Assembly: GCA_044224315.1 (NCBI GenBank)
Contig: JBGAKR010000003.1
Location: 172,510 to 236,509 of the forward strand
DNA length: 64,000 nucleotides
Reading direction: 5' to 3'
Source: Bacteroidia bacterium
Lineage (GTDB): Bacteria; Bacteroidota; Bacteroidia; NS11-12g; UBA955
Numbering within the stretch: the first letter of the stretch is position 1; each line of letters begins with the position of its first letter. This document shows positions 3,744 through 53,189 of this stretch, piece after piece. A program made the translations under genes and the position numbers. The notes under the pieces are model-generated. The model was not told the origin of the DNA. It did not search any database and worked only from the letters and a program-made list of their open reading frames with translations.

Positions 3744-3746
3744 AAA

Positions 3747-8219: not shown

Positions 8220-8227
8220 TATATTTG
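8220..8227 (+). promoter_or_regulatory. candidate Bacteroidetes sigma-A -7 box (TATATTTG, perfect TAnnTTTG) for the ACIII operon
   Basis: Perfect match to the published Bacteroidetes -7 consensus, ending 30 nt upstream of the actA ATG. A nearby inverted repeat TTAGCGC...GCGCTAA is also present. No convincing -33 TTG was found. Confidence 0.35.
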
Positions 8228-8256
8228 CAGCGCTAAAAAAAGCCTTCCATTTAATT

Positions 8257-33488: not shown

Positions 33489-34234
33489 AAAGCTGTGAAT
33501 CCCAGGCGTTTAAACAGCTCTTCTTTTTTGCGTCTGCTCACTTCAACCGTGCTTCCGTCCGACATTTTGAGATGCCCGCCATTGCTTTTTTCAAATGCAA
33601 CCACATGCTTGGAATTAATTAAATGTGAATGGTGCACCCTGATAAATTCGTGCGGATTCAATAATATTTCAAACTCGCCCAGGTTGCGCGATACAACCAT
33701 TTTCTTACCAGATTTTAAATACACTTCGCTATAGCGCCCCATGGCTTTCAAACGTATTATTTCCGAAATTTCAATGTATTGCATCCCATTGGATTCGGGT
33801 ATGGCTATTTTACGTTTGTTGGGCATGCCTCCCAAATTCTCTATCAGTGCAGTTAGCTGTTGATTGATATTTTTTTGCTGAATATTGTATAAAGCTTTTT
33901 CAACTGCGGTTTTAAGCTCTTTAATTTCAATGGGTTTCAGCAAATAATCTACCGCACTGACTTTAATGGCTTTTATAGCAAACTCGTTATACGCAGTTAC
34001 AAAAATCACCTGTGTTTCCATGGGTTGTATGCGTTTTAAAAGTTCAAAACCATTCTTTCCCGGCAGCGAAATATCCAGAAATAAAATATCCGGGTTCAGT
34101 AATCGCAGCAGCTTTTCACCTTCAACTATATTATCTGCCGTACCTACAATTTCTAAATTACAATAGTTTACACACAGGTGGGTGAGCAAATCACGGGCGT
34201 TGGTTTCGTCTTCTATAATTACAGCACTATTCAT
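33485..34234 (-). CDS. LytR/AlgR-family response regulator (REC plus LytTR DNA-binding domain)
   Basis: VIIEDE...DILFLDISLPGKNGFELL, then a LytTR-like C-terminus (IRVHHSHLIN). Confidence 0.85.
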   Translation of the reverse strand: MNSAVIIEDETNARDLLTHLCVNYCNLEIVGTADNIVEGEKLLRLLNPDILFLDISLPGKNGFELLKRIQPMETQVIFVTAYNEFAIKAIKVSAVDYLLKPIEIKELKTAVEKALYNIQQKNINQQLTALIENLGGMPNKRKIAIPESNGMQYIEISEIIRLKAMGRYSEVYLKSGKKMVVSRNLGEFEILLNPHEFIRVHHSHLINSKHVVAFEKSNGGHLKMSDGSTVEVSRRKKEELFKRLGFTAF

Positions 34235-37229
34235 AAATGCGCATTTTATCTTTTGTAAAAGCTAGCGGAATTTTAATTTCTGTGCGGGTGCCAGTGCGCC
34301 CTTCATATTTATCGGAAAGGTCTTCAATACTAAGTTCAATCAATATGTCGTTCATTTTATTTAAGGTAGTAATTCTCGAATTTAGCAATTCCATTCCCCT
34401 GGATTTATGCATTTGGTTTTTGTTGCTGTTTTGCTCTGTATGATTTATTCCCAGGCCATTATCCTGCACAATGCACACTAAATGGGTATCGGTTTTGTCT
34501 ATAATTAATTCAATTAAACCCCTTTTTTTGAGTGCACGCATTCCGTGGTTTACCGAATTTTCTAACAAAGGCTGTAACAGCATGGAGGGCAATTGGTACT
34601 GGGAAGTTACAATATCGGGATGAATTTGAATTTTAAACTCAAATTTATCTTCAAATCGCATTTCTTCAAGCTCCATATAATTGGTTAATAAATCCAATTC
34701 TTCGATTAAAGGGGTAAAATTATTGCGACTGTTTTCCAATAATTGCCTTATCAGCCGTGCAAAACGAGCCATGTATGCGTTTGCGGCTTCGGTTTTATGT
34801 TGAATAAAATAATTCTGAATGGCAGTTAAAGCATTGAATATAAAATGGGGATTCATTTGGGCGCGCAATGCTTGCATTTCTAGCCCGGCCATCTGTTTTT
34901 CTATACCCGATTTAAAAGCACTTTGCTGTTTAATCATAGATATTCTTTGACGGATAAATAAGTAAATTAAAATAGCCCCGATAATAATTACCAAAAAATA
35001 AAACCAAATTTGACGGTACCAGGGTTTTAAAATTGTAAATTGAAGCTGACGAATGGTACTTACTTCGCCGGTAAGCAGGTTTAAGGCCTGAACTTGAAAA
35101 GTATATTGCCCCGAATTCAAACCCAGAAAATCAACCTTATTATTGGCGGTATATACCCAATGCGAATCTAAACCCAGCACCCGATACCGGTATTCGATAT
35201 TGTCGGCGTTTTTTAATGAGATGGCAGCAAACTCAATGGAAATATTGTTTTCAGAGGGTTTTAATATTAATTTGCCTAATGTGTTATTGATTTTAAGATT
35301 TACCCATACATGGGTAATTTCAAGGCCCGGAATCTCACTAATATCAGATTGTTGTACAGGAAATCTGGCTAACCCGCGCGCGGTAGCCACAAAAATAGAA
35401 TCGTTGAGTACAATGCATGCATTCACAATATTGCTCTGAAAACCACTGGTGCTATTGAGTTTTAATATTCTAAAGTCTCCATTTGTTTTAAAATCAATCC
35501 GATTTATTCCATTGTCGGTTGAAACCCAAATTTCATTCTTGGGAGAAATGAAAAGGCTTTTAACATTAAAGGAACTAAGGCTTTTAGTAAGATTCAGAGT
35601 TTGAGAAATATTCAGAATTTGATTGCCATCTACTACAAATACACCAAACTGGGAGGTGCCTATCCAAATGCGATTTTTTGCATCCAGCTTAATATCCGTA
35701 ATGCGGGCCGAATCTAATTTGCTGTGCGTTATCCATTTTGCTGGCTGGGCTTGCTGTGTGGTTTTTTTGAAAAGGCCATTAATTGTGCCTATCCAAATAT
35801 CGCCATTGGGACTTTTGTTGATTGCCGTGCTTCTTGTCCTCCAATAAATAATATCGATTTCTCCTTTTTTTGTATCAAATACGCCAGCACCGTGTGCACA
35901 AGCAATGAGCAGTTTATTGTCCTTCAGGGTTTCTATGTCTTTGATTGAATTGAATAAATCATCATAATTAAAATATTCCAAAGTTCCGCTGCCAAGCTTC
36001 ATCGAGCCCATATAATAATCACCGCCAAAAAATAATCTATGATTCGAAATGGCCATTGCTAATGTACGGGTTGCACGCTGGTCATAAGTTTGAATCGGTA
36101 TGGATTTTAATTTCCCTTTATTAAATTCAAGCAGTGACAGATTTTCGGTTCCAATAAAAACCGTATCATTGGATGTTACAAAACAAGTGGGTACCTGGCC
36201 TTTAGTATCGAACAAAACCCCGCCAGAATTGGGTTTCATATATAATCCATTGTCTAAAGTGCTAATCCATAAATTGCCGGTTTTATCGGTATACATATGC
36301 GATACCCGCTCATTTGAAAGATTCACATTAAGGTCTATGGCCGAGTCATCTCCCTGCCATTTATAAATATCACCTTTAGAATTTTGCCAATAAAAAAAAT
36401 TATAATCGTTTGAAAATGGGCCCGTATGAAAATCATTGTTTATTCTTCGCGTTACCTTCAGCGTATCGCCGGATCGCTGCACCAGCCAATGATTTTTTTC
36501 TATGGAATTATAGCAAAAACCATAGTCTATTCCGTTTCGTTTTATTTGAATAATTTGGGTAGCGTTTCGGGTTTTTTTAATGGTTTTGCGTTGCATGGTA
36601 GATAAATTAATATAATGAGAAAAAGTATATAGAAAATCCACACCATTGAGGGTAAGTAACTGAAAATTAATTGATGGAACATCCAGGGCCCGCATGGGAA
36701 TGTCTTTGAAATTAGGATATTCAAGCAGAGTAATTTCCTCTTTTGTTACTTTAGAATCTGGTTTTGGAGGTTTTACAAAATAGAAAATTATACGTTTTGT
36801 ATGCGCATTTACGTCAAACCTGAATTCAGACAAATGGTTGAAATACCGGTTCAACAATGTATCGTTGTGCACGGTATGCAGCACATCATTATAAAAAAAA
36901 CAGGGTGCTTGTTTCCAGGTTATTACCCATAGCCGAAATTCACGGTCTTCAAAAATATAAAAGGCATCATTATCTGGCAGACCTTCTTTTACCGAGAATT
37001 TCTCAAATCGTTTCCCATCGAACCTTACCACACCGTTATCGGTACCAAACCACATAAACCCCCGATGATCTTGCACACAGGCATAAATCTTATCCGAAGG
37101 CAGCCCTTCATTGGTAGTGTAATGGCGTAAAAAAGCTTTTTGCGCATATGTCTTGCCAATGGTAGAAAGTAGCAAAAAAATGAACCCTAAAAATCTGCGC
37201 ATCATTGCAAATATATGGCCGACCCTCAA
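34227..37229 (-). CDS. sensor histidine kinase with periplasmic two-component-regulator propeller / Y_Y_Y domains and a LytS/YehU-type His_kinase plus HATPase
   Basis: 1000 aa: signal peptide, long beta-propeller repeat region, one transmembrane segment, then MNPHFIFNAL (PF06580-type H-box) and an ATPase domain. Overlaps the regulator gene by 8 nt. Confidence 0.8.
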   Translation of the reverse strand: MRVGHIFAMMRRFLGFIFLLLSTIGKTYAQKAFLRHYTTNEGLPSDKIYACVQDHRGFMWFGTDNGVVRFDGKRFEKFSVKEGLPDNDAFYIFEDREFRLWVITWKQAPCFFYNDVLHTVHNDTLLNRYFNHLSEFRFDVNAHTKRIIFYFVKPPKPDSKVTKEEITLLEYPNFKDIPMRALDVPSINFQLLTLNGVDFLYTFSHYINLSTMQRKTIKKTRNATQIIQIKRNGIDYGFCYNSIEKNHWLVQRSGDTLKVTRRINNDFHTGPFSNDYNFFYWQNSKGDIYKWQGDDSAIDLNVNLSNERVSHMYTDKTGNLWISTLDNGLYMKPNSGGVLFDTKGQVPTCFVTSNDTVFIGTENLSLLEFNKGKLKSIPIQTYDQRATRTLAMAISNHRLFFGGDYYMGSMKLGSGTLEYFNYDDLFNSIKDIETLKDNKLLIACAHGAGVFDTKKGEIDIIYWRTRSTAINKSPNGDIWIGTINGLFKKTTQQAQPAKWITHSKLDSARITDIKLDAKNRIWIGTSQFGVFVVDGNQILNISQTLNLTKSLSSFNVKSLFISPKNEIWVSTDNGINRIDFKTNGDFRILKLNSTSGFQSNIVNACIVLNDSIFVATARGLARFPVQQSDISEIPGLEITHVWVNLKINNTLGKLILKPSENNISIEFAAISLKNADNIEYRYRVLGLDSHWVYTANNKVDFLGLNSGQYTFQVQALNLLTGEVSTIRQLQFTILKPWYRQIWFYFLVIIIGAILIYLFIRQRISMIKQQSAFKSGIEKQMAGLEMQALRAQMNPHFIFNALTAIQNYFIQHKTEAANAYMARFARLIRQLLENSRNNFTPLIEELDLLTNYMELEEMRFEDKFEFKIQIHPDIVTSQYQLPSMLLQPLLENSVNHGMRALKKRGLIELIIDKTDTHLVCIVQDNGLGINHTEQNSNKNQMHKSRGMELLNSRITTLNKMNDILIELSIEDLSDKYEGRTGTRTEIKIPLAFTKDKMRIYE

Positions 37230-40081: not shown

Positions 40082-43000
40082 TCAGGGTTTTACTTCGCGT
40101 TTTTGGCCTTTTGAATTAATAAATGTAATGCTCACTACATTTTCATCTACCCAAACACCGGGCTGGCTGGCACTTAAATAACCACTGCCGTAGGTCATAT
40201 TTTCATTTCTTGTTTTGCCGCTTTTCAAAGATACCAGTGCTTTAATATCCGTTTTGTCGGCAGCAATAAAACGCAATTTGTGCTTGGTGGTGAATACTTT
40301 GGCTGGTCCATAATTTTGAGTAGCAACAATGCCTAATCCAGTGCCTTTTATATCGATGGTTACCAGAGATTTTGCATCACCCGGCACATAAAATCCATTT
40401 TGCAAACCGTCAGAAAAAATAAGGTCGCTGCCTGTGCTTGTAAGTATAAACCCGTTCAGAGCGTCATCTTTACCATGCTGCACCCTGGGCGAGTTTGAGT
40501 TTCCGGTGCCAAAAATGTCATTAAATCCGTCACCGTTCATATCCACAGCCACAAGTCCGAAAATTTGGCTGGCCTGCGCACGGCGGGGAAGTTCAAAAAG
40601 TTCAAAAGTACCACTGTTATTTCTCAAGGCTAAACTGCCAAAAAAGCTGGCTGAATAAGCATTTTTCTTCATATTCTCTTCACCAAAAACCTCAGGTGCT
40701 GTTTTGCTCGCCATCTCGGCATAAGTAGTGAATTTTTTACGCATGAAACCGGGGTAGGACATGGCCATTTCGTCGAGTTGGTACAATGGATATTCTTTGG
40801 CATTGCGGAAATAGGTCATCCATAAATCAGTATTGCCATTACCATCCAAATCGGTCCAGTAAATTTTTACCGGATTATTGGGAGTGGCTTTGATAAAGCT
40901 GTTTAAGCCCTTGTTACCACATATGAAATCCAAATCACCATCATTGTCAAAATCTACGGGCAATATGCTGTTGTACCAGCCTGAGGTATTATTTGTACCT
41001 ACAGCAGCAGTTTGGTCGGAAAATTTGCCGCCATTATTCGACAGGAAGGTTACATTCATCCATTCACCTGCAAGTATCAAATCAAGTTTATTATCGCTGT
41101 TATAATCGGCAAACACTGCTGCGCAAATCATGGGCGTTTTTGTTAAAATCGGTGCCCAGCTTTGGGTAATATCTACAAATTTGCCGTCGTCGTTGCGCAA
41201 TAGGTAACTGCGGTTCGGAAACTCGGGGTATTTGCCAGGCAGCAACCTGCCTGAAACAAATAAATCAAGATCGCCATCGGCATCAATATCCCCGGCGGTA
41301 AGGCAACTGCCACTACAGTTTACTTCGGGCAGGGCTTGAGAATTATCGCTAAAACCGCCTTTGCCGTCATTTTGATACAAATGGTGCTGATAATTGGGGT
41401 TGGGCCAGGCATATTCACTGCCTCCGGATACCAGGTAAATATCATTGTCATTATCACCATCCGCATCAAAAATCAAGCAGCCTAATACATCCACTTTCAG
41501 GCCGTTCCAGGGTTGTGAACCATTAAGCTTAAACTTGCCATCCTCAGTTTGCACATATAGTTTACTGCCGCTGCCCTCACGTGCATTGGTAATTAATAAA
41601 TCGGCCATGCCATCGCCGTTTATATCACCTGTGGCGGCACCTGGCCCTAGTTTTGAAAAAATATGGGGTAATAGGGGCTCGCGTTTAAAATCCCAGTTAT
41701 CGGTTTCTTCATGGGTATAATTTAATCCGCATTGCTCCGTAATGTCTTCAACGGTATAGGTTTCATCATTTTTGTATTGGTAAGTGCCACTCGCTTTGCT
41801 CTCATCAAGGGTAAGCAATTGGTTTGCCTTAACATCTTTCAGTTCTTCAAATTCTCCATTGGGCCATACCACCACCAGTTTATTAAGTTTGCTTGAATTT
41901 CCCAGACCTATATGAATCAAAGGCTGACTGCTGCTTTGATAACCATGGGTAAGTTGCATTTCGTACACCTGGGTTCCGCTATCGTTGCTTGCAAAAACTT
42001 TGGCACCAATACCCATTTGGTTGTTCTTTTTACCACCTTTAAGTTTTAAATCCAGGTAATTGCCTTTGGTGGCAATGTTTTTATAAACATGAACCGGATC
42101 GCCCTGGTTACATAGCACCAAATCCAAATGTCCGTCGTTGTTCAGGTCGGCATAAGCACTACCGGTAGATAGGGTAGGTTCATCCAATCCCCAGGTGGCA
42201 GTGGTATTCTCAAATAAATAGTCGCCCCGGTTGCGGAAAGCATAATTCTGCAATTTTTCAAAAGGCAGTTTATTCAATGTTTCCTGCTTGGTTACCAATT
42301 GCTTTTTCTGCTTCATTTTCCGATCCTGGTATAAAACATAGTCCAGGTTGGTTACATCGCGGTAATAGCCGTTAGAGATGTAAATATCAGTTAATCCATC
42401 ATTGTCAAAATCGGCAAACAGCGGGCTCCAACTCCAATCTGTGCGCGCCACTCCGGTAAGATAGGCCAAATCGCTAAAATACCCGTGAGAGTTGGTTTGA
42501 AGCGTGTTGTGCATGTACTGATAACCATATCCATTTTTAAGGGCGGTCATAAAATTATCAAAATCCTTAGGCCCTCCCATTTGAATAAACCTGCGTGGGT
42601 CATCGGTAAGCATATCTACCGTCATTAAATCAAGCCAGCCATCGCGGTTATAGTCGGCAGCATCGCTACCCATGCTATTGGTGCTGGTATGTTTAAAGTA
42701 CTTAGCCATACTTTCGGTAAAGGTGCCATCGCCGTTATTCAGATAGTAGTAATCTGGCACCTGATAATCGTTGCACACATAAATATCCAGTTTGCCATCG
42801 CGGTTAAAATCACCGGGCATTGCACTCAGGCAATATCCCATGGCCAGCATTCCGGCTTCTTCAGTTACATCGGTGTATTTATTGCCGTCGTTTCTAAAAA
42901 GGTGCTGTTGGTTGGTTTCGCTCATATTCAGCGTACGCTTCCATTTAATTTCAATCTGCGCAAAATATTTTTCGGCATGATTACCCAGGTATAAATCCAG

Positions 43001-43573
43001 GTCTCCATCAGCATCATAATCCCAAAATGTGGCGCAAGTGGCATTTCCACCATCAGCCACGCCCCATTCTTTGCCTTTTTCGCTAAAGGTGCCGTTTTTG
43101 TTATTGATAAACAAAAAATTGGTTTTTGCCTCAAGGCTTTTTTCCGGACCACTGCGGCAAATGTATATATCCATGAAACCGTCGTTATTTACGTCGGCCA
43201 TCGATATTCCACTCATCCAGCCATAGGTTTTGAGCCCCGCTTTTTGGGTAATATCTTCAAATTTAAAATCACCCTTGTTCAGGTAAAGTTTAGCCGGTTT
43301 TTCATTTCCGGAAAATACCAGGTCTACCAATCCGTCGTTATTAATGTCGCCCGCAGCTACACCCGCACCATTATACAAATAGTGGTAAGTCATCTGGTTC
43401 AAACTATCCGTTTCAGGAATGGTATTGGTAAAATCTATCCCTGTGTTTTTAGAATCCAGTAATTCAAAAATTTTCTCTCCCGCTGCGTTGTCATCTTTTT
43501 TGCCGCATGATATCATTGCAGTGAAAATCAAAGTTGTAGCGAAGGTTGCTACAAGCAAAAGCCTTTTTAACAT
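40082..43573 (-). CDS. CRTAC1/ASPIC-family lipoprotein with multiple FG-GAP/VCBS repeats and an UnbV_ASPIC-like C-terminal domain
   Basis: 1163 aa. Lipobox ...AMISCGKK. Recurring GDINNDGxxD/DxDGDGDxD calcium-binding beta-propeller repeats. Confidence 0.75.
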   Translation of the reverse strand: MLKRLLLVATFATTLIFTAMISCGKKDDNAAGEKIFELLDSKNTGIDFTNTIPETDSLNQMTYHYLYNGAGVAAGDINNDGLVDLVFSGNEKPAKLYLNKGDFKFEDITQKAGLKTYGWMSGISMADVNNDGFMDIYICRSGPEKSLEAKTNFLFINNKNGTFSEKGKEWGVADGGNATCATFWDYDADGDLDLYLGNHAEKYFAQIEIKWKRTLNMSETNQQHLFRNDGNKYTDVTEEAGMLAMGYCLSAMPGDFNRDGKLDIYVCNDYQVPDYYYLNNGDGTFTESMAKYFKHTSTNSMGSDAADYNRDGWLDLMTVDMLTDDPRRFIQMGGPKDFDNFMTALKNGYGYQYMHNTLQTNSHGYFSDLAYLTGVARTDWSWSPLFADFDNDGLTDIYISNGYYRDVTNLDYVLYQDRKMKQKKQLVTKQETLNKLPFEKLQNYAFRNRGDYLFENTTATWGLDEPTLSTGSAYADLNNDGHLDLVLCNQGDPVHVYKNIATKGNYLDLKLKGGKKNNQMGIGAKVFASNDSGTQVYEMQLTHGYQSSSQPLIHIGLGNSSKLNKLVVVWPNGEFEELKDVKANQLLTLDESKASGTYQYKNDETYTVEDITEQCGLNYTHEETDNWDFKREPLLPHIFSKLGPGAATGDINGDGMADLLITNAREGSGSKLYVQTEDGKFKLNGSQPWNGLKVDVLGCLIFDADGDNDNDIYLVSGGSEYAWPNPNYQHHLYQNDGKGGFSDNSQALPEVNCSGSCLTAGDIDADGDLDLFVSGRLLPGKYPEFPNRSYLLRNDDGKFVDITQSWAPILTKTPMICAAVFADYNSDNKLDLILAGEWMNVTFLSNNGGKFSDQTAAVGTNNTSGWYNSILPVDFDNDGDLDFICGNKGLNSFIKATPNNPVKIYWTDLDGNGNTDLWMTYFRNAKEYPLYQLDEMAMSYPGFMRKKFTTYAEMASKTAPEVFGEENMKKNAYSASFFGSLALRNNSGTFELFELPRRAQASQIFGLVAVDMNGDGFNDIFGTGNSNSPRVQHGKDDALNGFILTSTGSDLIFSDGLQNGFYVPGDAKSLVTIDIKGTGLGIVATQNYGPAKVFTTKHKLRFIAADKTDIKALVSLKSGKTRNENMTYGSGYLSASQPGVWVDENVVSITFINSKGQKREVKP

Positions 43574-43659: not shown

Positions 43660-44325
43660 CTATTCTTTGTCGTACGACAGGCGACTGTTGCCATGAATAG
43701 GTATTTTTTTACCTAAAAATTTAGGTTGCACCCCCAACAAAATTTCTAAAAATGCCTTTGTGCAAGCAAGGATTTCCCGGATTTTTTTGCTTCGATATCC
43801 TCCGTAATTTCGCAAATCACAGGTAACTCCGCTGGCATTGAGCCCGCAACCTTTGGCCAGATATAAACTGCGATGCATATACATCGTTTGGGTAACAACA
43901 ATAGCATCTGTAACTCCAAATATTTTGGCAGCGCGCATCATACTGCTATGGGTATCAAAGCCGGCATGATCCAGAAATATCACCGAATCGGGTACTCCTT
44001 TCTGGTTGAGATATTGTTTCATATGGTTTACCTCATCATAGCTCTCCTGGCCATGGTCGCCGGTTAATAAAAAACGTTGAATTTTCTTTTCAGTATAAAG
44101 GTTAAAAGCCACATCCAACCTATCGGCCAGTATGCTACTGGGTTTTCCGTTGTACCGAACCAAGGCCCCCGGAACAATGGCAGTGTATGCGTGCCGGGCT
44201 TGGGCCGTTTTATCTGTTATTAGGGCAGAATTGGATGTTTGTATATACAAATATGCGCCCGCAACCACTAGAATTAGCAGGCAAAAGCCAATCAATAAAA
44301 TTCTCCAAACGATTTTCAATCTCAC
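43660..44325 (-). CDS. SanA/YdcF (DUF218) family membrane protein
   Basis: N-terminal transmembrane segment, then the DUF218 core (AIVPGALVRYNGKPS...LLTGDHG...IVVTQTMYMHRSLYLA). Confidence 0.7.
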   Translation of the reverse strand: MRLKIVWRILLIGFCLLILVVAGAYLYIQTSNSALITDKTAQARHAYTAIVPGALVRYNGKPSSILADRLDVAFNLYTEKKIQRFLLTGDHGQESYDEVNHMKQYLNQKGVPDSVIFLDHAGFDTHSSMMRAAKIFGVTDAIVVTQTMYMHRSLYLAKGCGLNASGVTCDLRNYGGYRSKKIREILACTKAFLEILLGVQPKFLGKKIPIHGNSRLSYDKE

Positions 44326-44349
44326 TTTTCAAACATACAAATAATCCCC

Positions 44350-46371
44350 CTATTTTGGTTTTTTTCGGGTAATTCGTTTATAATATTTATTAGATTTTAT
44401 CCAGCCGCGGCGCACAATTTTGCGGTTTACCAATAGCACTCTCCGTATACTGTTATAATGATTGCGGATATGCGAGTTTTGTCCTTTGGATAAATATTTA
44501 GTCAAATAAATATCATAATAACCACGCCTTTTTATTCGGTGTAAATATTTGCGCACATAAACCTGGGTGCCGGTATCCAAGTGATGCAAGGCGGTTATCC
44601 AGCCCTTAACAAATGCGCGTTCATACACTATAAAACTGTCATATTCCATTTTAAAAGTGGTATACCGGGCTGTTATTCCGTCGTCTGCTGTAATGGAGCC
44701 TTTGTAGTTTTTAAATGCACGCATTTGATTGCGATACAGGCGATGTATGAAATGAAATGCATGCATTTTTTCAATAAAAAGTTTGCGCATACTATCGCTT
44801 AATGCAATATTATTTATGAGTAAACCTTGCTTACACAATGCATTGTATTTTAGCAGGGTATCGCGTTGCAATTTCATAAAATGATCCAGGTTGTCCTGTC
44901 CAAAAATGCGCAATGCAATTATCCCACCCATCAATTGGCTGGTATAAACGGCGTTTATGTAAAAATGTTGCAACGAATCTCTGAATGTTTTGGTAAGGTT
45001 GGGCACACGCCAATCATCAAACAGATGTTGTTTTAGTATAGTAATACTATCATGAATTTTGCCTATAAGGGTATCGGCCTTTTTTTGCCTGTCGGGATGG
45101 TTTCGGGATCTGCTCCATTTCTTTTTCTCAAACCCTTCCGAATAGGTATAACGCGACCATTTTAAGTCAGCATGCAGGGCCTTATAAGTTTCACTTTTGA
45201 TCTGGTGAATTCGGGTAATTTTCTTATCCAGCAGTTTTTTATTGCGCTTTGATGTGCGGATTATTTGTTTATCTACCTGCATGGCTAAATTTTTCTTTAA
45301 ACGCACTTTGCGCATTAATTGCATTTTTTGCAGTTTAAAATCCACACCGGCCGAGTCGTAAAATATCATGCCGCTATCACCGAATTTAATGGCCTCCCGG
45401 GCTTTTTTTAGCTCAGTGAGTGAATCGCCCCCGGGTTCGAAGTCTTCAATTTTTCGTTTCAATAAATATGTATAGGATATCCCAATATCGAAATGATTGA
45501 TATACCCAAATTTATGGGCATCCAAACCAATTTTTATTATTTGATCCTCATCGCTCAGCGTGCTGAAAGCACTGCGCTTGCCTTCATTGGCGTAATCATA
45601 TTCGGTACTTTCAGTTTTTCTGTAGTGCAGATAATGGGCGCTGTCGTGCACAAATGAATCGATTGTAATAGGCGGTGCAAGCAATTGCCAGTACGGAACA
45701 GATGCTAAGTGATCTGCGCTGAAATAATTCCCCGATTTTAAAAAATAATTGTATCTGGGGGCTGGCACAAACCGGGGTTTATACCTGTAAGGAGGCAAAT
45801 GGCCTAAGGTAAAAATCCATTTTACAGTGCCCCAAAATGTTTTACCAACCACTTTCACATATCCTGCATCCCAGGTGGCATCCAGCAATTTCCATTCCCC
45901 ATCCAGGTAAACCGCATTCCAAATATGTTCGGAAACGTAAAAACTGTCGGCCAAATCAGTTTCATACGTTTTAACATAACCCGGCACACCCACCGATGAA
46001 ATACCGGCCTCTTTGCACATTTCATTTATCAAATCGCTATACCCCTGGCATATGGCCCGGCGTTTTTTAAGTATATTATTTACTTCGTTTTTAGAATAGT
46101 CTCCGATTGCAGCTTTAACATAATTGTATTTGATGTGCGTAATAACCCAGGTGTAAATGGCACACAGCTTATCTTCATCTGTACTTAGATTTTTAGTTAA
46201 GTATGCAGTGAGAGTGGCTACATCTCTTGATTTAAAATAGGGTACGCGTTTGATTTTACAGGGTGTGGAGGAATAAACCTTAATGGGTTTTACCACTGCA
46301 GAATCGGATTGCGAATGCAGATAGCGGGGTATTAAAATATACAAAAAAAACAGAATGTGTAAAAAACGCAT
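44350..46371 (-). CDS. secreted transglutaminase-like (papain-fold Cys-His-Asp) domain protein with a long poly-basic C-terminal region
   Basis: Signal peptide. Catalytic-core pattern CQGYSDL...HIWNAVYLDGEWKLLDATWD. The C-terminal ~350 aa are K/R-rich, ending RKIVRRGWIKSNKYYKRITRKKPK. Confidence 0.65.
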   Translation of the reverse strand: MRFLHILFFLYILIPRYLHSQSDSAVVKPIKVYSSTPCKIKRVPYFKSRDVATLTAYLTKNLSTDEDKLCAIYTWVITHIKYNYVKAAIGDYSKNEVNNILKKRRAICQGYSDLINEMCKEAGISSVGVPGYVKTYETDLADSFYVSEHIWNAVYLDGEWKLLDATWDAGYVKVVGKTFWGTVKWIFTLGHLPPYRYKPRFVPAPRYNYFLKSGNYFSADHLASVPYWQLLAPPITIDSFVHDSAHYLHYRKTESTEYDYANEGKRSAFSTLSDEDQIIKIGLDAHKFGYINHFDIGISYTYLLKRKIEDFEPGGDSLTELKKAREAIKFGDSGMIFYDSAGVDFKLQKMQLMRKVRLKKNLAMQVDKQIIRTSKRNKKLLDKKITRIHQIKSETYKALHADLKWSRYTYSEGFEKKKWSRSRNHPDRQKKADTLIGKIHDSITILKQHLFDDWRVPNLTKTFRDSLQHFYINAVYTSQLMGGIIALRIFGQDNLDHFMKLQRDTLLKYNALCKQGLLINNIALSDSMRKLFIEKMHAFHFIHRLYRNQMRAFKNYKGSITADDGITARYTTFKMEYDSFIVYERAFVKGWITALHHLDTGTQVYVRKYLHRIKRRGYYDIYLTKYLSKGQNSHIRNHYNSIRRVLLVNRKIVRRGWIKSNKYYKRITRKKPK

Positions 46372-46482
46372 TGTTTAGTAAACGCGAATTAAGGTAAATC
46401 GTTACAATTTGAATTGCCTTTCAAATTTCAACCAACGATTTTACCGAATTTTCTGTCGTTGTATAAAATTCGTTTGGTTTGA

Positions 46483-48876
46483 ATGAAACCTAATTTCCTA
46501 TATTTGACCCTTATGACGCTTTTCAGGCCCAAACATTTTGCCCTTTGGGCGCTTATGTGCGGTTCTTTTTATACCCTTTCTTCTCAGGAAACCAAGGATT
46601 CGCTCCGATTGTGGAATTTGCTCAACCACAATGATATGAATACCGAAAAAACCATAGACCAATCCGAAATTCCCAGCAATACAGGTACTTTTTTCAAAAC
46701 CAATCCAAACGACAAAACCGAGCAAATACTGGTAATCACCGGTGAGTTTATAAGCAGGCTCAATTACAATACGCTAGGCGATGTGCTAAAGGATTTACCC
46801 CAATTTTATGTAAATCAGCCGGGTTCGGCCTTGCAAGGCGAAGTTTTTTATTCTGCAGGACTGAATGGCAATGAAAACTATGCAATATTAATCAACGGAG
46901 TGCCGGTGCATACCTATTTCTCGGCCGGTTTTCCTGTAGCCAATAATTTGCCCATCCGCCAGGCCCAGCGTATCGAAATATCTTTTAATCCCGCCTCTGC
47001 CCGCTATGGTTCAGGAGCCACCTTGGGGGTTATCAATATTATTACCCCTCAAACCGAGAGACCTGTTTATATCAAAGCCAGCCTCAATGGGTTCTCAAAT
47101 AATTTTAATAATATGAGTTTGCTGGTGGGAGGTAAATTTGGCAAAGGCCGCAATACAGTGCGGTTTGATGTGTATGGCAATTATCAGAAGTACGCAAATA
47201 TTAAATTAAAATCCGATACGCAAATCAGTAGTTTGTATAATTACCGGTACAAATATTATCCGTATTTCAACAATACAAATTACAAGCAATTGCCGCCTGA
47301 CAATGGTCCGGTAGAACACCTCAGCGACCTTACCGGATTGAATGTATATTACCGCAATTGGTATCTGATGTTTAATAGCGCCAACCGCAAAGACCAGGCT
47401 TCAAATGGCTTAAATCCACTGGCGATGTACAAGGATGTGGCCAATTTTTTTGTATCCGACCGGCAATTAAATTTTGCCATCACCAATGAAAAAACCAAAA
47501 AAAACCGACACAATTTTTACCAGGGCAGGGTTTCGTATTATCGCATCCAATCGGGCAGTGCGGCCAAATATATTTTTCCGGCCCTCAAACAGGCTGCATT
47601 CGATTATCTGATTGAAAACCTGAAAGGAACTGTACCCAAAGATTCTATCCCTTTTATTGTAAATCGCAATTTGCAAAAACTCGATGCCCATTTGTTTGAC
47701 CAGGTTAGATTTGTACGCGGAGGTGCACTCGATATTAATTTAACTGTATTGAGGGAATTTTCTATAAAAAACCTTCAAATTAAATATGGTTTTAATTATA
47801 CAATCGCTGGTGGTACCGCTATTAACCGGTACAGCCGCACACCTTATTACGATAATATATTCAGCTCCGATACCAATACAATTACTTCCAATATCGGTCG
47901 TAATAATGCATATTTTACCGGAATGGGCTCCATTGTGCTGGGAATAAGCTATAAATTCAAGAAATATAATTTTGATTTTTTCAACTCCTTACAGAGTGGA
48001 AATATCTTAACCACAGGTAATAATAAATCGGTAAATATGCCCTCTCTGCGCATTACACGAAAACGCGGTAAAGATAAGTCCGCATGGTTTTTGGTATACA
48101 GCATGGGGATGGATGCATTTAACCCTACACGCAAAGAAAATCAATATAAGTTTACCCGGGTTACCCAGGATTCGCTTGCCATCGAACGCGATTTTTCAAC
48201 TTATAGTTATACAAAAAAAACACAGATATCTTTTGGTACACAACGCAATTACCTGTTTTATTCTAAAACAACAGGTATACCGGTTATTGGGTTTTATGAT
48301 GAAAATTACAATTACTCGAGGGTAGCAACTGTTAATACACGCTATTATGGCAACTATATATCACCCAATTCAATCCTCGAACATTATGGAATAACCATGG
48401 TATCGCCAGATTTGAATACAAATTCATTTACCAGTGGAATTTATTCGGGCAATGATACTTCTCATCAATATGGATGGAAGTTGGGCGTTAAAACAATCGC
48501 TTTATTTTCAGTTCAAAAGTATACTTTGCCCAATGCCGATGGAGTTCAAAAAACAAATTATTTTACCCCTTCCAATAAAATCAGATTTAATTTTTATTTA
48601 AGCAATGGCCGCAATTGGATGTTTACTTTCCTGTATAACCTGCAAAATAAGGTACGTCCAAGCTTTTATTACGATGCTGTTTTACCCAACAAACAAACCA
48701 TAGATTTATTATTTAACTACAACTTTACCCGTCAATTTTCTGCCAATATTAAATTATTCAATATTACCGGCACCAATCTGTTTGGCCCGCAGGCCACTGG
48801 CTCGGTAGATGATTTGAATCTTCAGCCCCAGCGGTATTTACGCATGTTAATAACAATGAATTATGCCCTGGAATAA
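46483..48876 (+). CDS. TonB-dependent-receptor-like outer-membrane protein (plug domain plus large beta-barrel), divergent
   Basis: Plug-domain pattern ILVITGEFISRLNYNTLGDVLKDLPQ...AILINGVP...IEISFNPASARYGSGATLGVINIIT. About 600 aa of Tyr/Asn/Gly-rich beta-strand sequence follow. The C-terminus lacks the usual terminal aromatic residue. Confidence 0.5.
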   Translation: MKPNFLYLTLMTLFRPKHFALWALMCGSFYTLSSQETKDSLRLWNLLNHNDMNTEKTIDQSEIPSNTGTFFKTNPNDKTEQILVITGEFISRLNYNTLGDVLKDLPQFYVNQPGSALQGEVFYSAGLNGNENYAILINGVPVHTYFSAGFPVANNLPIRQAQRIEISFNPASARYGSGATLGVINIITPQTERPVYIKASLNGFSNNFNNMSLLVGGKFGKGRNTVRFDVYGNYQKYANIKLKSDTQISSLYNYRYKYYPYFNNTNYKQLPPDNGPVEHLSDLTGLNVYYRNWYLMFNSANRKDQASNGLNPLAMYKDVANFFVSDRQLNFAITNEKTKKNRHNFYQGRVSYYRIQSGSAAKYIFPALKQAAFDYLIENLKGTVPKDSIPFIVNRNLQKLDAHLFDQVRFVRGGALDINLTVLREFSIKNLQIKYGFNYTIAGGTAINRYSRTPYYDNIFSSDTNTITSNIGRNNAYFTGMGSIVLGISYKFKKYNFDFFNSLQSGNILTTGNNKSVNMPSLRITRKRGKDKSAWFLVYSMGMDAFNPTRKENQYKFTRVTQDSLAIERDFSTYSYTKKTQISFGTQRNYLFYSKTTGIPVIGFYDENYNYSRVATVNTRYYGNYISPNSILEHYGITMVSPDLNTNSFTSGIYSGNDTSHQYGWKLGVKTIALFSVQKYTLPNADGVQKTNYFTPSNKIRFNFYLSNGRNWMFTFLYNLQNKVRPSFYYDAVLPNKQTIDLLFNYNFTRQFSANIKLFNITGTNLFGPQATGSVDDLNLQPQRYLRMLITMNYALE

Positions 48877-51235
48877 ATGTGTTTTAGCGCTGCTTTTTTT
48901 TACTTTTACGCTGTTTGCAAAAGCAGAGGAGGGGCATGTATTCAGCATCGATGATTCGGGTTTAATTGTTCAGTTAATTAAAGAAGCCGAAGCTGAAACC
49001 GATTATCAAACGCGCATTGGCAAGGCCCGTGATGCATATTTAACTGCCAAAAGTGTGGCTTTTGAAAGGGGTATGGTTTGGGGCCTCAAATTGCTGATAG
49101 ATGCCCATTTAACCCAACATGAGAATATAGAAGCCCTGCGATATTGTTTTAGCATTTTGCCTTTGCTTGAAAAGTTAAAAAGCCCCGAATTGTCTAAATA
49201 TTATGAAATTACGGGCGATATTTATACACTGGAAAGTATTTATAAAAAAGCCATAGAATATTACGAAAAGGCGGGATGGATAGACGGAAAGCTGATAGAA
49301 AGCAGGGGGTGTAAAATTGTAAATAACGCACTTATCGACCAGAATTATGCAAAAGCGGTAGAGTATTTAAACCTATTAAAAGTACAGGTAAAAACTGCCG
49401 AAATATACGAACAGCTGGGATTTTGCTTGCAAAAATTAAAACAATATCCCGAAGCTATAGCCAATTATAACAAGGCACTGGAGTTGCAACCCAATAATAC
49501 AGCTTTGGTTCAAAACAACCTGGGCTATATTGAATTTAATAACCAGAATTATAAGCAGGCTATAGAACACTTTAAAGCCGCCGAAGCAGCCTCGGATAGC
49601 AGAGCAGAGAAATTAAATGCACTTACCAATCTCAGCATTTCTTTTCAACGCAATGGCGATTTTAATTCCGCGGTAAGCACCATGCAGGAATGTATTTCGC
49701 TGGCGCAAAAGGATCGTACAGAGGATAAGTATCAGCAAATGCTGGCCGATATTTATCTCAACAATGGCGATGCTTATTCGGCACTTACCTACAGCAATCT
49801 GGCTTTGCGCAGCTTTAACCGCAACCCTAAAATTATGGCCAGTGCCTATTTGACCAAAGCACAGGCATTTCAAAAAATTTATGATTTCGAAGGGGCACTT
49901 AGCAATTACAAAATATACCTTACTCTCAACGATTCTATTCTGCTGAGGGAAATTGCAGCCCAACAAAGCCTTACACAAAAATCGGCCGATTTGCAGAAAA
50001 TGGAAAAAGAACTCCGTGAAACCTTGCTCAACGACCAGATTAAATTTTTAAATATTCAACAGTTACAATTAGAGAGTGAAAAACTAAAACTCAACTCCGA
50101 AAAGCTGATGCTGGAGGCAGCCAAGCGCGATGCTGAAATTATAACCCTCAAAAGAGAGCAGGAAGTAAAAGAAGCCAGACTCCAAAATATTGCATTGGAA
50201 AATGATAAAAACCGACAAAAACTGGCACTGGCAGCTCAGGAAATATTAAATAATAATATAAAAAACAAACTAGAAGTATTAAAACAGCAAGAAGAAAAAC
50301 AAAGGCTGCAGTTAATAAATAAAGAAGCCCAGGAAAAGCAACGCTTACAGCAAATATCACTGCTTGAACGCGATAAAAAAATTAGCCTGTTGCAGGCCGA
50401 AAAGCAAAAAGATTTCAAACGCAATACCCTGGTGGCCGGATTGGTGGCCGTTTTGCTGCTGGTATCGGCAGGCATTGGTATTTTTTGGATTCGCAAAAAG
50501 AATAAAATTCTGGCCAAACAAAATATCGATATCGAAAATAAAAACAAACAAATTGAACAAAGTCACGTAATAATTGAGGCTGAGAAACTAAAATCAGATG
50601 GATTGTTGCTCAATATTTTACCCGAAGAAATTGCCCACGAATTAAAAGAAAGGGGTGCAGCAAAGCCCATACATTATGATATGGTTAGCATACTATTTAC
50701 CGATTTTGTGAGCTTTACCCAATATTCAGAAAGGGTTTCAAACGAAAAATTAATTGAAGATTTAAATACTATATTTCAATCTTTTGATGAAATTATAGAT
50801 GAGTTTAATCTCGAAAAAATTAAAACCATTGGCGATAGTTATATGTGCGCTGGTGGCCTTCCAGTGCCTAATACCACCAACCCACTGGATGCTGCTAATG
50901 CTGCCATAAAAATGCGCAATTATATTGAGGAATTTAATAAAAACCGACCCGAAGAAGACCAATTAAAAATAAGGATTGGCATTAATACAGGGCCCTGTGT
51001 GGCAGGTGTGGTGGGTAAACGCAAATTTGCGTATGATATCTGGGGCGACTCGGTAAATACCGCTGCACGCATGGAACAAAGCGGCGAGGCCGGAAGAATT
51101 AATATTTCCGAAAATACTTATGAATTAATCAAAGACCATTTCCATTGCGAATACAGAGGCATGGTAAAGGCTAAAAATAAAGGAGAAATAAAAATGTATT
51201 TTGCCGAGGCCGGAAACCGCGCCGCACATGGTTAA
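48863..51235 (+). CDS. membrane-anchored class III adenylate/guanylate cyclase with a large periplasmic TPR domain and a coiled-coil stalk
   Basis: Signal peptide, TPR repeats, a Q/E/K-rich coiled coil, a transmembrane segment (LVAGLVAVLLLVSAGIGIFWI), then the cyclase catalytic domain (FTDFVSFT...KTIGDSYMCAGGLP...WGDSVNTAARMEQSG). Start overlaps the upstream gene by 14 nt. Confidence 0.8.
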   Translation: MPWNKCVLALLFFTFTLFAKAEEGHVFSIDDSGLIVQLIKEAEAETDYQTRIGKARDAYLTAKSVAFERGMVWGLKLLIDAHLTQHENIEALRYCFSILPLLEKLKSPELSKYYEITGDIYTLESIYKKAIEYYEKAGWIDGKLIESRGCKIVNNALIDQNYAKAVEYLNLLKVQVKTAEIYEQLGFCLQKLKQYPEAIANYNKALELQPNNTALVQNNLGYIEFNNQNYKQAIEHFKAAEAASDSRAEKLNALTNLSISFQRNGDFNSAVSTMQECISLAQKDRTEDKYQQMLADIYLNNGDAYSALTYSNLALRSFNRNPKIMASAYLTKAQAFQKIYDFEGALSNYKIYLTLNDSILLREIAAQQSLTQKSADLQKMEKELRETLLNDQIKFLNIQQLQLESEKLKLNSEKLMLEAAKRDAEIITLKREQEVKEARLQNIALENDKNRQKLALAAQEILNNNIKNKLEVLKQQEEKQRLQLINKEAQEKQRLQQISLLERDKKISLLQAEKQKDFKRNTLVAGLVAVLLLVSAGIGIFWIRKKNKILAKQNIDIENKNKQIEQSHVIIEAEKLKSDGLLLNILPEEIAHELKERGAAKPIHYDMVSILFTDFVSFTQYSERVSNEKLIEDLNTIFQSFDEIIDEFNLEKIKTIGDSYMCAGGLPVPNTTNPLDAANAAIKMRNYIEEFNKNRPEEDQLKIRIGINTGPCVAGVVGKRKFAYDIWGDSVNTAARMEQSGEAGRINISENTYELIKDHFHCEYRGMVKAKNKGEIKMYFAEAGNRAAHG

Positions 51236-51256
51236 TTTATGAAATAGGCAGCTGAC

Positions 51257-51934
51257 TTAGGGTTTAATAGCCCTGAGCATTTCACGTTTTCCCAAAGGCC
51301 CGGGCAGTTTTTGTACAATAAAACCCACAGCTTGTAAATTCCGTCTCACCTCACCCTTGGCGCAATAGGTTACCAGTACGCCCCCATTTTTTAAACAATT
51401 GAAAGCATGTTGCATTAAAGATTTTTTCCAGATTTCGGGCTGCACGCTGGGAGCAAATGCATCATAGTAAATTAGGTCAAATGCTTGTGTTGGGCTAAAA
51501 TTTTCAAAATGTTGTTGTAATTTTTGAAAATGAAAATTATTGGTAATTCCTGTTTCTTTGTTCCACTTTGCTTGCTGTATAGATTCCCACAATCTAATTA
51601 GAGCTGCATTTTCTGAAATCTGCTGCGGAATCGGATATAAACCAGATGGGATAGGGGTAGTATCTAATCCGGTATAAGAAATTTGCTGCTGGTCTTGAAT
51701 ACTAATAGCCGTTAAAAATGCATTTAATCCGGTACCAAAACCAATTTCAAGAATAGTTAAATGCTGGCTATCTTTAAAATATTTGAATCCGGCATCTACA
51801 TATACGTGCATACTTTCATTCCATGCGCCAAATTTGCTGTGGTAGGTTTCATTTAAATCTTTGCGCAGCAAGGTAAAACTACCATCGGCAGTGGGCAATA
51901 TTTGTATATTTTCTGAATTATCTGCGTTTTTCAT
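51257..51934 (-). CDS. tRNA 5-methylaminomethyl-2-thiouridine biosynthesis methyltransferase MnmD-like (DUF752 / MnmC methyltransferase-domain homologue)
   Basis: SAM-methyltransferase pattern ILEIGFGTGLNAFLT and a DFDLIYYDAFAPSVQPEIW-type region, as in the MnmC N-terminal domain. Confidence 0.6.
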   Translation of the reverse strand: MKNADNSENIQILPTADGSFTLLRKDLNETYHSKFGAWNESMHVYVDAGFKYFKDSQHLTILEIGFGTGLNAFLTAISIQDQQQISYTGLDTTPIPSGLYPIPQQISENAALIRLWESIQQAKWNKETGITNNFHFQKLQQHFENFSPTQAFDLIYYDAFAPSVQPEIWKKSLMQHAFNCLKNGGVLVTYCAKGEVRRNLQAVGFIVQKLPGPLGKREMLRAIKP

Positions 51935-53189
51935 CTACCTTCAAAAAGGTAAATAACAATAGAGTAAAGGCCCACATACTGCTGCCTCCAAAACTTACAA
52001 AAGGCAGGGGAATGCCTATTACAGGTACAATCCCGATGGTCATACCCACATTAATGGCTACATGAAAAAATAGTATACAGGCTACCGAATAGCCTAGTAC
52101 CCTTCCAAAAACCGTACTCTGTCGTTCGGCCAATATAGCTATCCGCAAAAGCAGCCCGAAATAGAGCAGAAAAAACACCGAAACACCGGCAAAACCCCAT
52201 TCTTCGCCTATGGTACAAAATATAAAGTCGGTATGCTGTTCCGGTACAAACCCCATTTTGGTTTGGGTACCTTTTAAATAACCCCGCCCGGTCCATTTGC
52301 CAGCCCCAATGGCTATTTTACTCTGCTCGAGGTTATAACCCATCCCTTTGGTATCCTGCTTCAGGCCTAATACCAGTTCAATGCGGTCGCGCTGATAGTT
52401 TTTTAATACTTTACCATACGCAATGCTTACACCATAAGAAAAGCCGGCTGAAATTGCTGTAACAATGGCCACTGCTACAATAAATTGGGTGTTCTTACGT
52501 CCAAAATAAATAAGAATCAGGGATATGGTTCCAAGTATACCTCCCATCCACCAAAGGGGAATTCCTTTTGCTTCAAGAATAATGGCAGCTATACCTAAAA
52601 TACCCATCCACAAGGCACTAAGCAATATCCATCCAGGCAATCCTTCGCGGTACAATACCAAAAAGAAACACAAAAAAACCAGGGCCGATCCGGTGTCGTT
52701 CTGCACCAGAATGATGGCCATGGGTAGCATAAAAATGAATAAAGCGGTAAGCACATTCTTTCGGCCCTTAAACTTTATTCCATAGGTACCTAAAAACTTG
52801 GCCATGGCCAATGCTGTCCCTACTTTGGCGAATTCAGAGGGTTGCAATCCCACGCCCCCAAATCCAAACCAGCTTTTGGCTCCGCTAACTTCTTTTCCTA
52901 AAAAAATTACTGCAATATTTAATACAATCGTAATGGCATAAAAACCATAAGCGAAATAATCAATGGCGGCTACGTTGGCAAAAGCAATGGTAAGGATAAT
53001 AATGATGGCCCCGCCAATCCAGATTAACTGACGGCCGGCGGTGGAAGAAAATGACAATTTAAAAGGTTGGTTAACATCGGCTGTGGCCGAGTAAATACTC
53101 AATAAACCTATCAATACCAGCAATACGTAAATCCATACACTTATGGTGTCTAAGTGCGGATTTTCGCTGGTATTGTTTCGGCTGCTCAC
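51918..53189 (-). CDS. rodA: rod-shape-determining protein RodA (SEDS family peptidoglycan glycosyltransferase)
   Basis: 423-aa polytopic FtsW/RodA-family protein immediately downstream of mrdA in the mre cluster. Confidence 0.85.
   Translation of the reverse strand: MSSRNNTSENPHLDTISVWIYVLLVLIGLLSIYSATADVNQPFKLSFSSTAGRQLIWIGGAIIIILTIAFANVAAIDYFAYGFYAITIVLNIAVIFLGKEVSGAKSWFGFGGVGLQPSEFAKVGTALAMAKFLGTYGIKFKGRKNVLTALFIFMLPMAIILVQNDTGSALVFLCFFLVLYREGLPGWILLSALWMGILGIAAIILEAKGIPLWWMGGILGTISLILIYFGRKNTQFIVAVAIVTAISAGFSYGVSIAYGKVLKNYQRDRIELVLGLKQDTKGMGYNLEQSKIAIGAGKWTGRGYLKGTQTKMGFVPEQHTDFIFCTIGEEWGFAGVSVFFLLYFGLLLRIAILAERQSTVFGRVLGYSVACILFFHVAINVGMTIGIVPVIGIPLPFVSFGGSSMWAFTLLLFTFLKVDEKRR

Follow-up and report, generated by a model that had tools for sequence, protein, structure and literature searches.

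The stretch of DNA analyzed here, referred to as the window, comprises 64,000 nucleotides of a Bacteroidia bacterium (GenBank assembly GCA_044224315.1, contig JBGAKR010000003.1, positions 172,510 to 236,509 of the forward strand). It carries two overlapping genes, one for an outer-membrane β-barrel protein with a predicted TonB-dependent transporter (TBDT) fold, and one for an inner-membrane protein in which a periplasmic tetratricopeptide repeat (TPR) solenoid and a coiled-coil stalk are joined to a cytoplasmic class IIIa cyclase. Together, they look like a two-gene, trans-envelope sensory module with a swappable cytoplasmic output. The pairing of this type of barrel with a TPR sensor is ancient, tight, and broader than the combination of barrel and cyclase: in related loci, the same periplasmic input is followed by a PP2C-type phosphatase or by a histidine kinase. 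Three different cytoplasmic signaling enzymes on one conserved periplasmic input imply an inward flow of information, from the envelope into the cytoplasm. The initial annotation of this stretch had interpreted the pair as a trans-envelope signaling module; this interpretation is supported, and the three outputs on the same barrel and TPR input strengthen it. We tentatively go further and read the module as a previously unrecognized, phylum-wide form of cell-surface signaling in Bacteroidota. A receptor of TBDT fold, devoid of an STN domain, would directly engage a TPR/coiled-coil sensor that spans the periplasm and stands in for the anti-sigma factor, and the output would be, depending on the lineage, cAMP synthesis, PP2C-type partner-switching, or two-component phosphorylation. 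This reading, although preferred here, falls a little short of probable.

The two genes and their overlap are located as follows:

46483..48876, + strand: barrel gene, 797 aa, predicted divergent TonB-dependent-transporter fold (open reading frame, Plug domain, AlphaFold2 model, and Foldseek)
48863..51235, + strand: inner-membrane sensor cyclase gene, 790 aa (open reading frame, Pfam, and AlphaFold2 model)
48863..48876, + strand: overlap of the barrel and partner genes, 14 nt, read from the sequence

Both open reading frames (ORFs) and the overlap are exactly where they had been annotated. The overlapping letters are ATGCCCTGGAATAA, in which the barrel ends with Y-A-L-E-stop and the partner starts with M-P-W-N-K. 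An overlap of this kind implies, at the level of sequence, that the two genes are translationally coupled. Its length is identical, 14 nt, in the related loci L002/L003, L004, L005, L092, and L093. In the window clade, the overlap is dual-coding (Y-A-L-E/D-stop for the barrel, M-[PR]-W-x-K for the partner), with its length exactly kept. The dual-coding overlap may itself constrain the odd C-terminus of the barrel and the N-terminus of the partner.

Within the barrel protein, the following parts are distinguished:

46483..46584, + strand: signal peptide, approximately residues 1–34, with predicted cleavage before Gln35 (sequence reading)
46585..46710, + strand: N-terminal periplasmic extension, residues 35–76, ~45 aa, including the TonB-box position (alignments and pLDDT)
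46711..47031, + strand: Plug domain, residues 77–183 (Pfam PF07715, E 1.3e-13, 51.8 bits against a cut-off of 23.9)
47065..48873, + strand: β-barrel, approximately residues 195–797, with ~22 long strands (DSSP of the AlphaFold2 model, Foldseek, and conserved C-terminus)

The signal peptide has a basic n-region and a hydrophobic segment, FALWALMCGSFYTL, followed by SS/QE; the signal peptides of the relatives end in AQ/x at the same alignment position. The Gln at position +1 of the predicted mature end is found in many exported Bacteroidota proteins. Residues 1–81 are predicted to be disordered, with a predicted local distance difference test (pLDDT) value below 50 in the AlphaFold2 (AF2) model, and the extension is partly conserved. 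The large barrel and the Plug domain, both claimed in the initial annotation, are found, and the barrel is indeed divergent: no Pfam barrel family, including TonB_dep_Rec, matches the window protein, and the plug region gives only sub-threshold NCBIfam matches, to the BtuB, FepA, and CirA models. An AF2 model built from a nine-sequence family alignment (mean pLDDT 61.9; predicted template modeling score 0.67) was compared with the PDB by Foldseek. It matched BtuB, PirA, PfeA, Fiu, FhuE, FecA, and FpvA over the full length (E 1e-16 to 1e-13), and the alignments with BtuB, PirA, PfeA, FecA, and FhuE span 740–860 columns. Judged from this model, the protein is a genuine, divergent representative of the TonB-dependent transporter fold. 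The paired barrels of other clades exceed the Pfam thresholds for both the Plug and the TonB_dep_Rec_b-barrel (PF00593) domain. An STN domain was detected neither in the window barrel (E ≤ 0.1) nor in six related barrels (E ≤ 0.01).

The position of the TonB box is the weak point of the barrel. In the window clade, it corresponds to about residues 62–68, EIPSNTG, in which only T67 and G68 are invariant. Paired and unpaired relatives alike show a canonical-like xV[IV]SA[ST]R at this position, and the outgroups AITVTAS or DLVVTST. The spacing from this position to the first plug strand agrees with that of BtuB, as residues 48–206 of the NCBIfam BtuB model align to residues 82–246. As read from the alignments, the TonB box looks degenerate in the window clade and canonical-like in the wider family. 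The segment EQILVITGE was also considered as a TonB box and was rejected, since it aligns with the first plug strand of ordinary TonB-dependent receptors (equivalent to VSVITAEEI). A C-terminal aromatic residue is a usual, but not absolute, feature of TonB-dependent transporters. The window barrel ends in ...LNYALE and lacks it, as had been noted, though this trait belongs to the whole family, which ends in Y/F-x-[LM]-[NDE] with the aromatic residue at position −4. The non-aromatic C-terminus was rejected as a mark of paired barrels, as the unpaired relatives have it too.

The partner protein is composed of the following parts:

48863..48931, + strand: signal peptide, approximately residues 1–23, AKA/EE (a hydrophobic N-terminus here and in all 27 collinear partners)
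48947..49876, + strand: periplasmic TPR solenoid, residues 29–338, 17 helices (AF2, TPR Pfam matches, and conservation)
49886..50386, + strand: periplasmic coiled-coil stalk, residues 342–508, ~165 aa (AF2 helices 342–447 and 451–508, and conservation)
50429..50491, + strand: single transmembrane helix, residues 523–543 (hydropathy, alignment, and AF2 helix 522–585)
50492..50653, + strand: cytoplasmic signaling helix, residues 544–597 (HNOBA match, conserved motif, AF2, and fold match)
50672..51205, + strand: class IIIa cyclase catalytic domain, residues 604–781 (Pfam PF00211 Guanylate_cyc, E 3.6e-56)

The AF2 model of the partner, derived from ten sequences (mean pLDDT 77), shows a signal-like N-terminal helix, the TPR solenoid, a near-unbroken helix from residue 342 to 508, a transmembrane helix running into the cytoplasm, and a cyclase fold at residues 603–783. 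The signal peptide, the coiled coil, the single transmembrane helix, and the cyclase were thus annotated correctly, but the TPR domain, proposed to measure ~450 aa, is divided in the model into a solenoid of ~310 aa and the ~165-aa stalk. The partner is a type-I single-pass inner-membrane protein and, since class III cyclases act as dimers, presumably dimeric.

The solenoid is predicted with a pLDDT mostly above 90, and TPR_12, TPR_1, TPR_2, and TPR_8 match above the Pfam cut-offs. In a fold search, the whole partner model retrieved generic cyclases and designed CTPR proteins, with no specific relative of the TPR head. Residues N218/N219, N256, and D303 of the head are 95–100% conserved among 40 cluster representatives. 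N218/N219 belong to an NNxGY motif, in which N219 occupies TPR position 6; N256 has the corresponding place, position 6, in the following repeat. The usual ligands of TPR domains are proteins or peptides, and Asn at such positions contacts the backbone of extended peptides in known TPR–peptide complexes, OGT being one example. The stalk carries the leucines 417, 445, 473, and 501, conserved across the same 40 representatives. Their exact spacing of 28 residues, or four heptads, indicates that the coiled coil is continuous and held in register. If continuous, the stalk is predicted to be ~25 nm long (165 helical residues at ~0.15 nm each). This is roughly the distance between the two membranes of Gram-negative bacteria.

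On the cytoplasmic side, residues 552–594 of the signaling helix match the C-terminal end of Pfam HNOBA (E 4.9e-4, below the cut-off). The LLLNILP motif of this helix is invariant, and the helix is continuous with the transmembrane helix in the AF2 model. The best fold match of the partner is the soluble domain of the mycobacterial Cya, including its helical part; the signaling helix is presumably equivalent to the transducer element found in class IIIa/b cyclases. The six catalytic residues are all present: D614 and D658 for metal binding, K654 and D725 for adenine specificity, and N732 and R736 for the transition state. They align with both the C1 and C2 halves of AC9 and with Rv1625c and are invariant in ten family members, so that a loss of key Asp or Lys residues, raised as a possible objection in the initial annotation, is not observed. 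Among PDB entries, the domain matches AC9, AC8, AC5, and Rv1625c at E 1e-62 to 1e-40, and the fold comparison gave TM-scores of 0.8–0.9 (target-normalised). The domain is predicted to be an active, homodimeric adenylate cyclase, and the Lys/Asp pair K654/D725 predicts ATP as the substrate and cAMP as the product.

The close family of the barrel is small: 5.8 billion proteins include seven full-length relatives. Each of these whose contig extends past the barrel has a TPR-cyclase directly downstream, with a 14-nt overlap, namely P0004 (52% identity), P0007 (30%), and P0006 (33%, the partner being cut by the contig end), and the genes flanking the pair are completely different between these three loci. 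The contig of P0002 (61% identity) stops at the barrel. The relatives of the periplasmic region of the partner show parallel identities of 65, 61, 58, 57, 45, 38, and 37%. In the reverse direction, starting from the TPR-cyclases P0020, P0025, P0027, and P0032, a plug-barrel gene was found immediately upstream in all four cases, overlapping by 14 nt in two and by 4 nt in the other two. Co-conservation of barrel and cyclase, suggested as a check on the annotated pair, consequently holds from either gene, down to ~30% identity and in unrelated contexts. The marks of such a pair are all present in the window: the same strand, the barrel gene first, an overlap or a gap of at most ~20 nt, and a partner transmembrane helix at about residues 480–560.

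A wider picture was obtained by scanning one genome per species with the barrel alignment. The ORF analysis was scripted, partner domains were assigned by Pfam and phmmer, and cut partners were read from the sequence. This yielded 27 complete Bacteroidota pairs, with a cyclase partner at 9 loci, a TPR-SpoIIE/PP2C partner at 15, a TPR-HisKA/HATPase partner at 2 (Flexithrix dorotheae DSM 6795 and a metagenome-assembled genome (MAG) of the Cyclobacteriaceae), and, at one locus, L020, a partner with TPRs and a transmembrane segment but no output domain. At 5 further loci, the partner is cut by the contig end and begins with a signal peptide and a TPR-like start; 12 barrels are unpaired, and 4 loci are uninformative because the contig ends. 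Outside the window clade, the spacing of the two genes is −4 to +11 nt in most pairs. Eleven of the 12 unpaired barrels fall into a single clade of the barrel tree, and the partner types cluster by barrel clade. In the same scan, none of ~27 low-scoring, ordinary TonB-dependent receptor loci had a TPR-sensor partner.

The architecture of the partners is equally constant. An N-terminal signal-like segment and one transmembrane helix are present in 27 of the 28 downstream proteins examined. The downstream protein of L057, with several transmembrane segments and no TPR, was excluded from the pairs. The transmembrane helix starts between residues 477 and 558 (median 535), and each partner has, directly before it, a Pro-free segment of at least 154 aa consisting of 38–58% E/K/Q/R/D. 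An independent sample was drawn with the periplasmic region of the partner as the only query, in an exhaustive phmmer search against 1.84 billion cluster representatives: among 40 collinear representatives, the output was Guanylate_cyc in 33, SpoIIE in 5, and HATPase_c in 1.

A few loci depart from the common arrangement. In L049, from a Thermonemataceae MAG, the TPR-SpoIIE gene is divergent and situated 146 nt upstream of the barrel (3270-5855, − strand, and 6001-8319, + strand), giving a second gene order of the pair. The partner of L020 (8166-9932, + strand) has a signal peptide, TPRs, a stalk, a transmembrane helix, and a cytoplasmic tail of only 46 aa; it may have decayed or may rely on another protein for signaling. 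Just upstream of some pairs, response-regulator genes are seen, of the OmpR type in L002 (5218-5895) and L003 (3166-3843) and, as two LytTR-type genes, in L091 (1-286 and 728-1477). They are not conserved across the family, and none adjoins the window pair.

In the working model favored here, the TPR head binds a periplasmically exposed part of the barrel and reads it out directly, a contact put forward tentatively and which could well prove otherwise. The stalk would hold the head just under the outer membrane. Ligand binding would alter the periplasmic face of the barrel, and the disordered N-terminal segment around the TonB-box position would become exposed, as in other TonB-dependent transporters; the N-terminal extension (residues 35–76) is a candidate for the segment read by the head. 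From there, the signal would travel through the stalk, the transmembrane helix, and the cytoplasmic signaling helix to the cyclase dimer, where the class IIIa adenylate cyclase would be switched and the cAMP level changed. In sister lineages, the same input would drive a PP2C phosphatase or a histidine kinase. The ligand, as well as the direction and the sign of the regulation, are put forward as parts of this model.

Direct contact is favored by the translational coupling, by the length- and register-conserved stalk, by TPR grooves, which typically bind peptides, with their conserved Asn residues, and by the apparently degenerate TonB box of the window clade. A need for the head to reach the outer membrane would account for a conserved spacer of 25 nm. 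Several observations weigh against it. The unpaired barrel clade has the N-terminal extension too, which is therefore not partner-specific, and in the majority of paired barrels the TonB box remains canonical-like and the Plug and barrel are normal, which fits ordinary importers equally well. Small ligands or free peptides are bound by some TPR-like domains, such as those of MalT and the RRNPP receptors, and weak TPR_MalT matches occur in some partners. Moreover, the stalk was modeled as a monomer with a pLDDT of 45–65, so that its continuity and length are estimates, and the barrel tree is a simple neighbor-joining tree without support values.

These same observations agree with a more conventional function of the pair. 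The barrel would be a TonB-energized importer, and its substrate, perhaps an oligopeptide or some other nutrient, would be bound by the TPR head once released into the periplasm. The linkage of the genes would then reflect a sensor that monitors the intake of the transporter, following the logic of the Bacteroides polysaccharide utilization loci with their periplasmic hybrid two-component sensors. The standard Plug and TonB_dep_Rec_b-barrel domains and canonical-like TonB boxes outside the window clade, the absence of an STN signaling domain from the window barrel and the related barrels examined, and the known binding of small ligands or peptides by TPR-like sensors (MalT; the Rap/NprR/PlcR family), with the faint TPR_MalT matches, all suit such an importer, and co-conservation and output swapping fit it as well as they fit direct contact. 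However, a freely diffusing ligand gives no obvious need for a ~25-nm stalk conserved in length and register, overlapping and translationally coupled genes are more typical of the subunits of one complex, and EIPSNTG, with its Pro and Gly at the TonB-box position, argues against efficient TonB-driven import in the window clade; sensing of an imported substrate, the main rival of direct contact, is on balance rather unlikely. A structural or regulatory complex, in which the arrow is reversed or missing, is improbable. The TPR/coiled-coil protein would here tether, assemble, or gate the barrel, or would sense the state of the envelope (periplasm width or outer-membrane stress), with the barrel as an anchor whose ligand is irrelevant. 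TPR proteins are known to be paired with barrels in exopolysaccharide secretion (AlgK-AlgE, PgaA, and BcsC), a stalk that crosses the periplasm and is fixed to both membranes would naturally serve as a ruler for the geometry of the envelope, and the L020 partner possesses no more than TPRs, a transmembrane segment, and its short tail. Against this stand the plug, which is characteristic of gated ligand uptake rather than of export porins, the lack of conserved polysaccharide synthesis or export genes near the pairs, whose flanks differ everywhere, and the three signaling-enzyme outputs, which indicate a sensory role. The chance adjacency of an orphan nutrient receptor and an independent membrane cyclase is effectively refuted by more than 30 loci in different Bacteroidota families, with unrelated flanks and found in both search directions, as well as by the conserved overlap, the agreement of partner type with barrel clade, and the absence of such partners beside ordinary TonB-dependent receptors. 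What probability remains falls to mechanisms other than direct read-out by the TPR head, sensing of an imported substrate, a structural role, or chance.

In its logic, the module resembles cell-surface signaling by the TonB-dependent transducers (FecA-FecR-FecI, FpvA or FoxA with their anti-sigma factors, and the SusC-like/anti-sigma/ECF-sigma systems of Bacteroides, ECF standing for extracytoplasmic function). There too, the gene of a plug-barrel receptor adjoins that of a single-pass inner-membrane protein, whose periplasmic domain would read out the receptor and relay the signal inward, and a TonB-box-like segment is retained in most of the paired clades described here. However, the present barrel has no STN domain, its partner does not belong to the FecR-type anti-sigma factors, and the neighborhood contains no ECF sigma gene. 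The partner is, in addition, inverted, with a periplasmic N-terminus and a cytoplasmic C-terminus, on the periplasmic side the reader consists of a TPR solenoid mounted on a long coiled coil, and the outputs are enzymes (adenylate cyclase, PP2C, or histidine kinase). In the canonical transducers, the sigma factor is released by proteolysis (PMC11637429).

The catalytic part resembles the class IIIa membrane cyclases with a transducer element (Rv1625c/Cya and the mammalian membrane adenylate cyclases) in the six catalytic residues, the Lys/Asp pair, and the helical transducer, and AC9, AC8, AC5, Rv1625c, and the Mycobacterium intracellulare Cya are its best sequence or fold matches. Those enzymes are held by six-transmembrane anchors, whereas the window protein has a single transmembrane helix, a periplasmic TPR/coiled-coil unit of ~500 aa, and a dedicated outer-membrane partner gene.

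Control of an inner-membrane signaling enzyme by an outer-membrane component is also known from YfiB-YfiR-YfiN, RcsF-OMP-IgaA, NlpE-CpxA, and PahS-PahP-PahK/R. In YfiBNR, composed of a lipoprotein, a periplasmic repressor, and a diguanylate cyclase, the output is likewise a nucleotide second messenger, and Rcs signaling depends on spanning the periplasm. None of these systems is known to combine a plug-containing TBDT fold with a TPR/coiled-coil sensor; they use lipoproteins or a soluble periplasmic shuttle and have no sequence relationship to the pair. The nearest analogue found is PahS/PahP with its two-component system (PMC10570129). Finally, the exopolysaccharide export systems mentioned above share the association of a periplasmic TPR solenoid with an outer-membrane β-barrel, but their barrels are porins for export and have no plug, the TPR portion is either joined to the barrel in one protein or a lipoprotein, instead of belonging to an inner-membrane protein with a signaling enzyme in the cytoplasm, and no polysaccharide genes are conserved here. 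A full-text search of the literature, within the searchable collection, found no description of a TonB-dependent receptor paired with a TPR cyclase, phosphatase, or kinase, in line with the initial annotation, which knew of no characterization of the pairing.

TonB-dependent receptors are the main nutrient gates of Bacteroidota, and, to our knowledge, their only established inward signaling is through anti-sigma/ECF-sigma pairs. The present module looks like trans-envelope signaling in which a receptor of the TonB-dependent type works with a new reader and with new outputs, through a mechanism that we infer. Through a conserved pairing with a modular sensor, the outer membrane would gain a second signaling route, ending in adenylate cyclase, PP2C phosphatase, or histidine kinase. 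It would link the sensing of nutrients or contact at the surface to cAMP in a phylum whose cAMP signaling has barely been studied. It would also offer a natural system for mechanical signal transfer across a periplasm of ~25 nm, in which the length-conserved stalk makes a ruler hypothesis testable. The module is also present in at least one cultured strain, F. dorotheae DSM 6795, whose locus L039 on NZ_KB903455 is of the histidine kinase type, and on an assembly labelled Chitinophaga pinensis; a Chitinophaga locus, L025, is of the cyclase type. With a compact module of two genes and a cultured carrier, experiments are feasible.

The window, part of a Bacteroidota chromosome, carries type IX secretion sorting domains, and the mreB-mreC-pbp2-rodA genes are located directly downstream of the pair. 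The neighbors of the pair are a transglutaminase-like gene, a DUF218 gene, an FG-GAP gene, an MnmC-like methyltransferase gene, and RodA. The first of these is located as follows:

44350-46371, − strand: transglutaminase-like gene (Transglut_core, E 6.4e-14)

Its product is a secreted protein of 673 aa, with the core domain at residues 53–165, followed by ~500 aa without a Pfam match and a strongly basic C-terminal tail. The gene, transcribed divergently from the pair, exists as annotated but is not part of the module, as no homologue adjoins any of the related pairs. The DUF218, FG-GAP, and RodA genes were rejected as parts of the module as well, being without homologues in any related locus. 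No informative conserved neighbor hints at the ligand among the related loci. Scans of positions 46200-51500 for sigma-70 promoters and intrinsic terminators gave counts equal to the shuffle expectation, with a tool that contains no Bacteroidota promoters. An Rfam scan of positions 44000-52000 (E ≤ 1) gave only two sub-threshold chance matches and did not reveal a riboswitch upstream of the barrel from which the ligand could be guessed. For a cAMP effector, all window ORFs were searched by phmmer with an approximate Escherichia coli CRP sequence, and no match was obtained at E ≤ 1.

The MnmC-like, S-adenosylmethionine-dependent methyltransferase (Pfam Methyltransf_30) is encoded at positions 51257-51934 on the − strand, convergent to the cyclase gene and 22 nt past its stop codon. 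Homologues (E 1e-42 to 1e-52) are situated immediately downstream of the PP2C-type partner, on the same strand, in six Bacteroidales/Rikenellaceae loci:

L031, 10640-11296: methyltransferase homologue
L032, 10651-11430: methyltransferase homologue
L035, 10686-11342: methyltransferase homologue
L036, 10832-11494: methyltransferase homologue
L037, 10958-11614: methyltransferase homologue
L041, 10761-11471: methyltransferase homologue

These six loci form one barrel clade and thus represent at most two independent observations. The gene is absent beside the window-clade relatives L002 and L004. The adjacency may reflect residual synteny or chance, or the gene may be a loosely attached third component.

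Further away, a 1163-aa lipoprotein-like protein with 11 FG-GAP-like repeats and an ASPIC/UnbV domain is encoded at positions 40082-43573 (− strand), downstream of the DUF218 gene, and has no connection with the module. Positions 33485-37229 (− strand) encode a sensor of 1000 aa, with two-component-regulator propeller repeats, a Y_Y_Y domain, and a LytS-type His_kinase domain, and, after it, a LytTR response regulator. The two form an ordinary two-component pair of the periplasmic-propeller type found in Bacteroidota, 9 kb from the barrel/cyclase pair. At positions 5004-6272 (+ strand), an ORF of 422 aa, without a cyclase domain or an adjacent barrel match, weakly resembles the TPR part of the partner (E 3.6e-9) and is probably another TPR protein.

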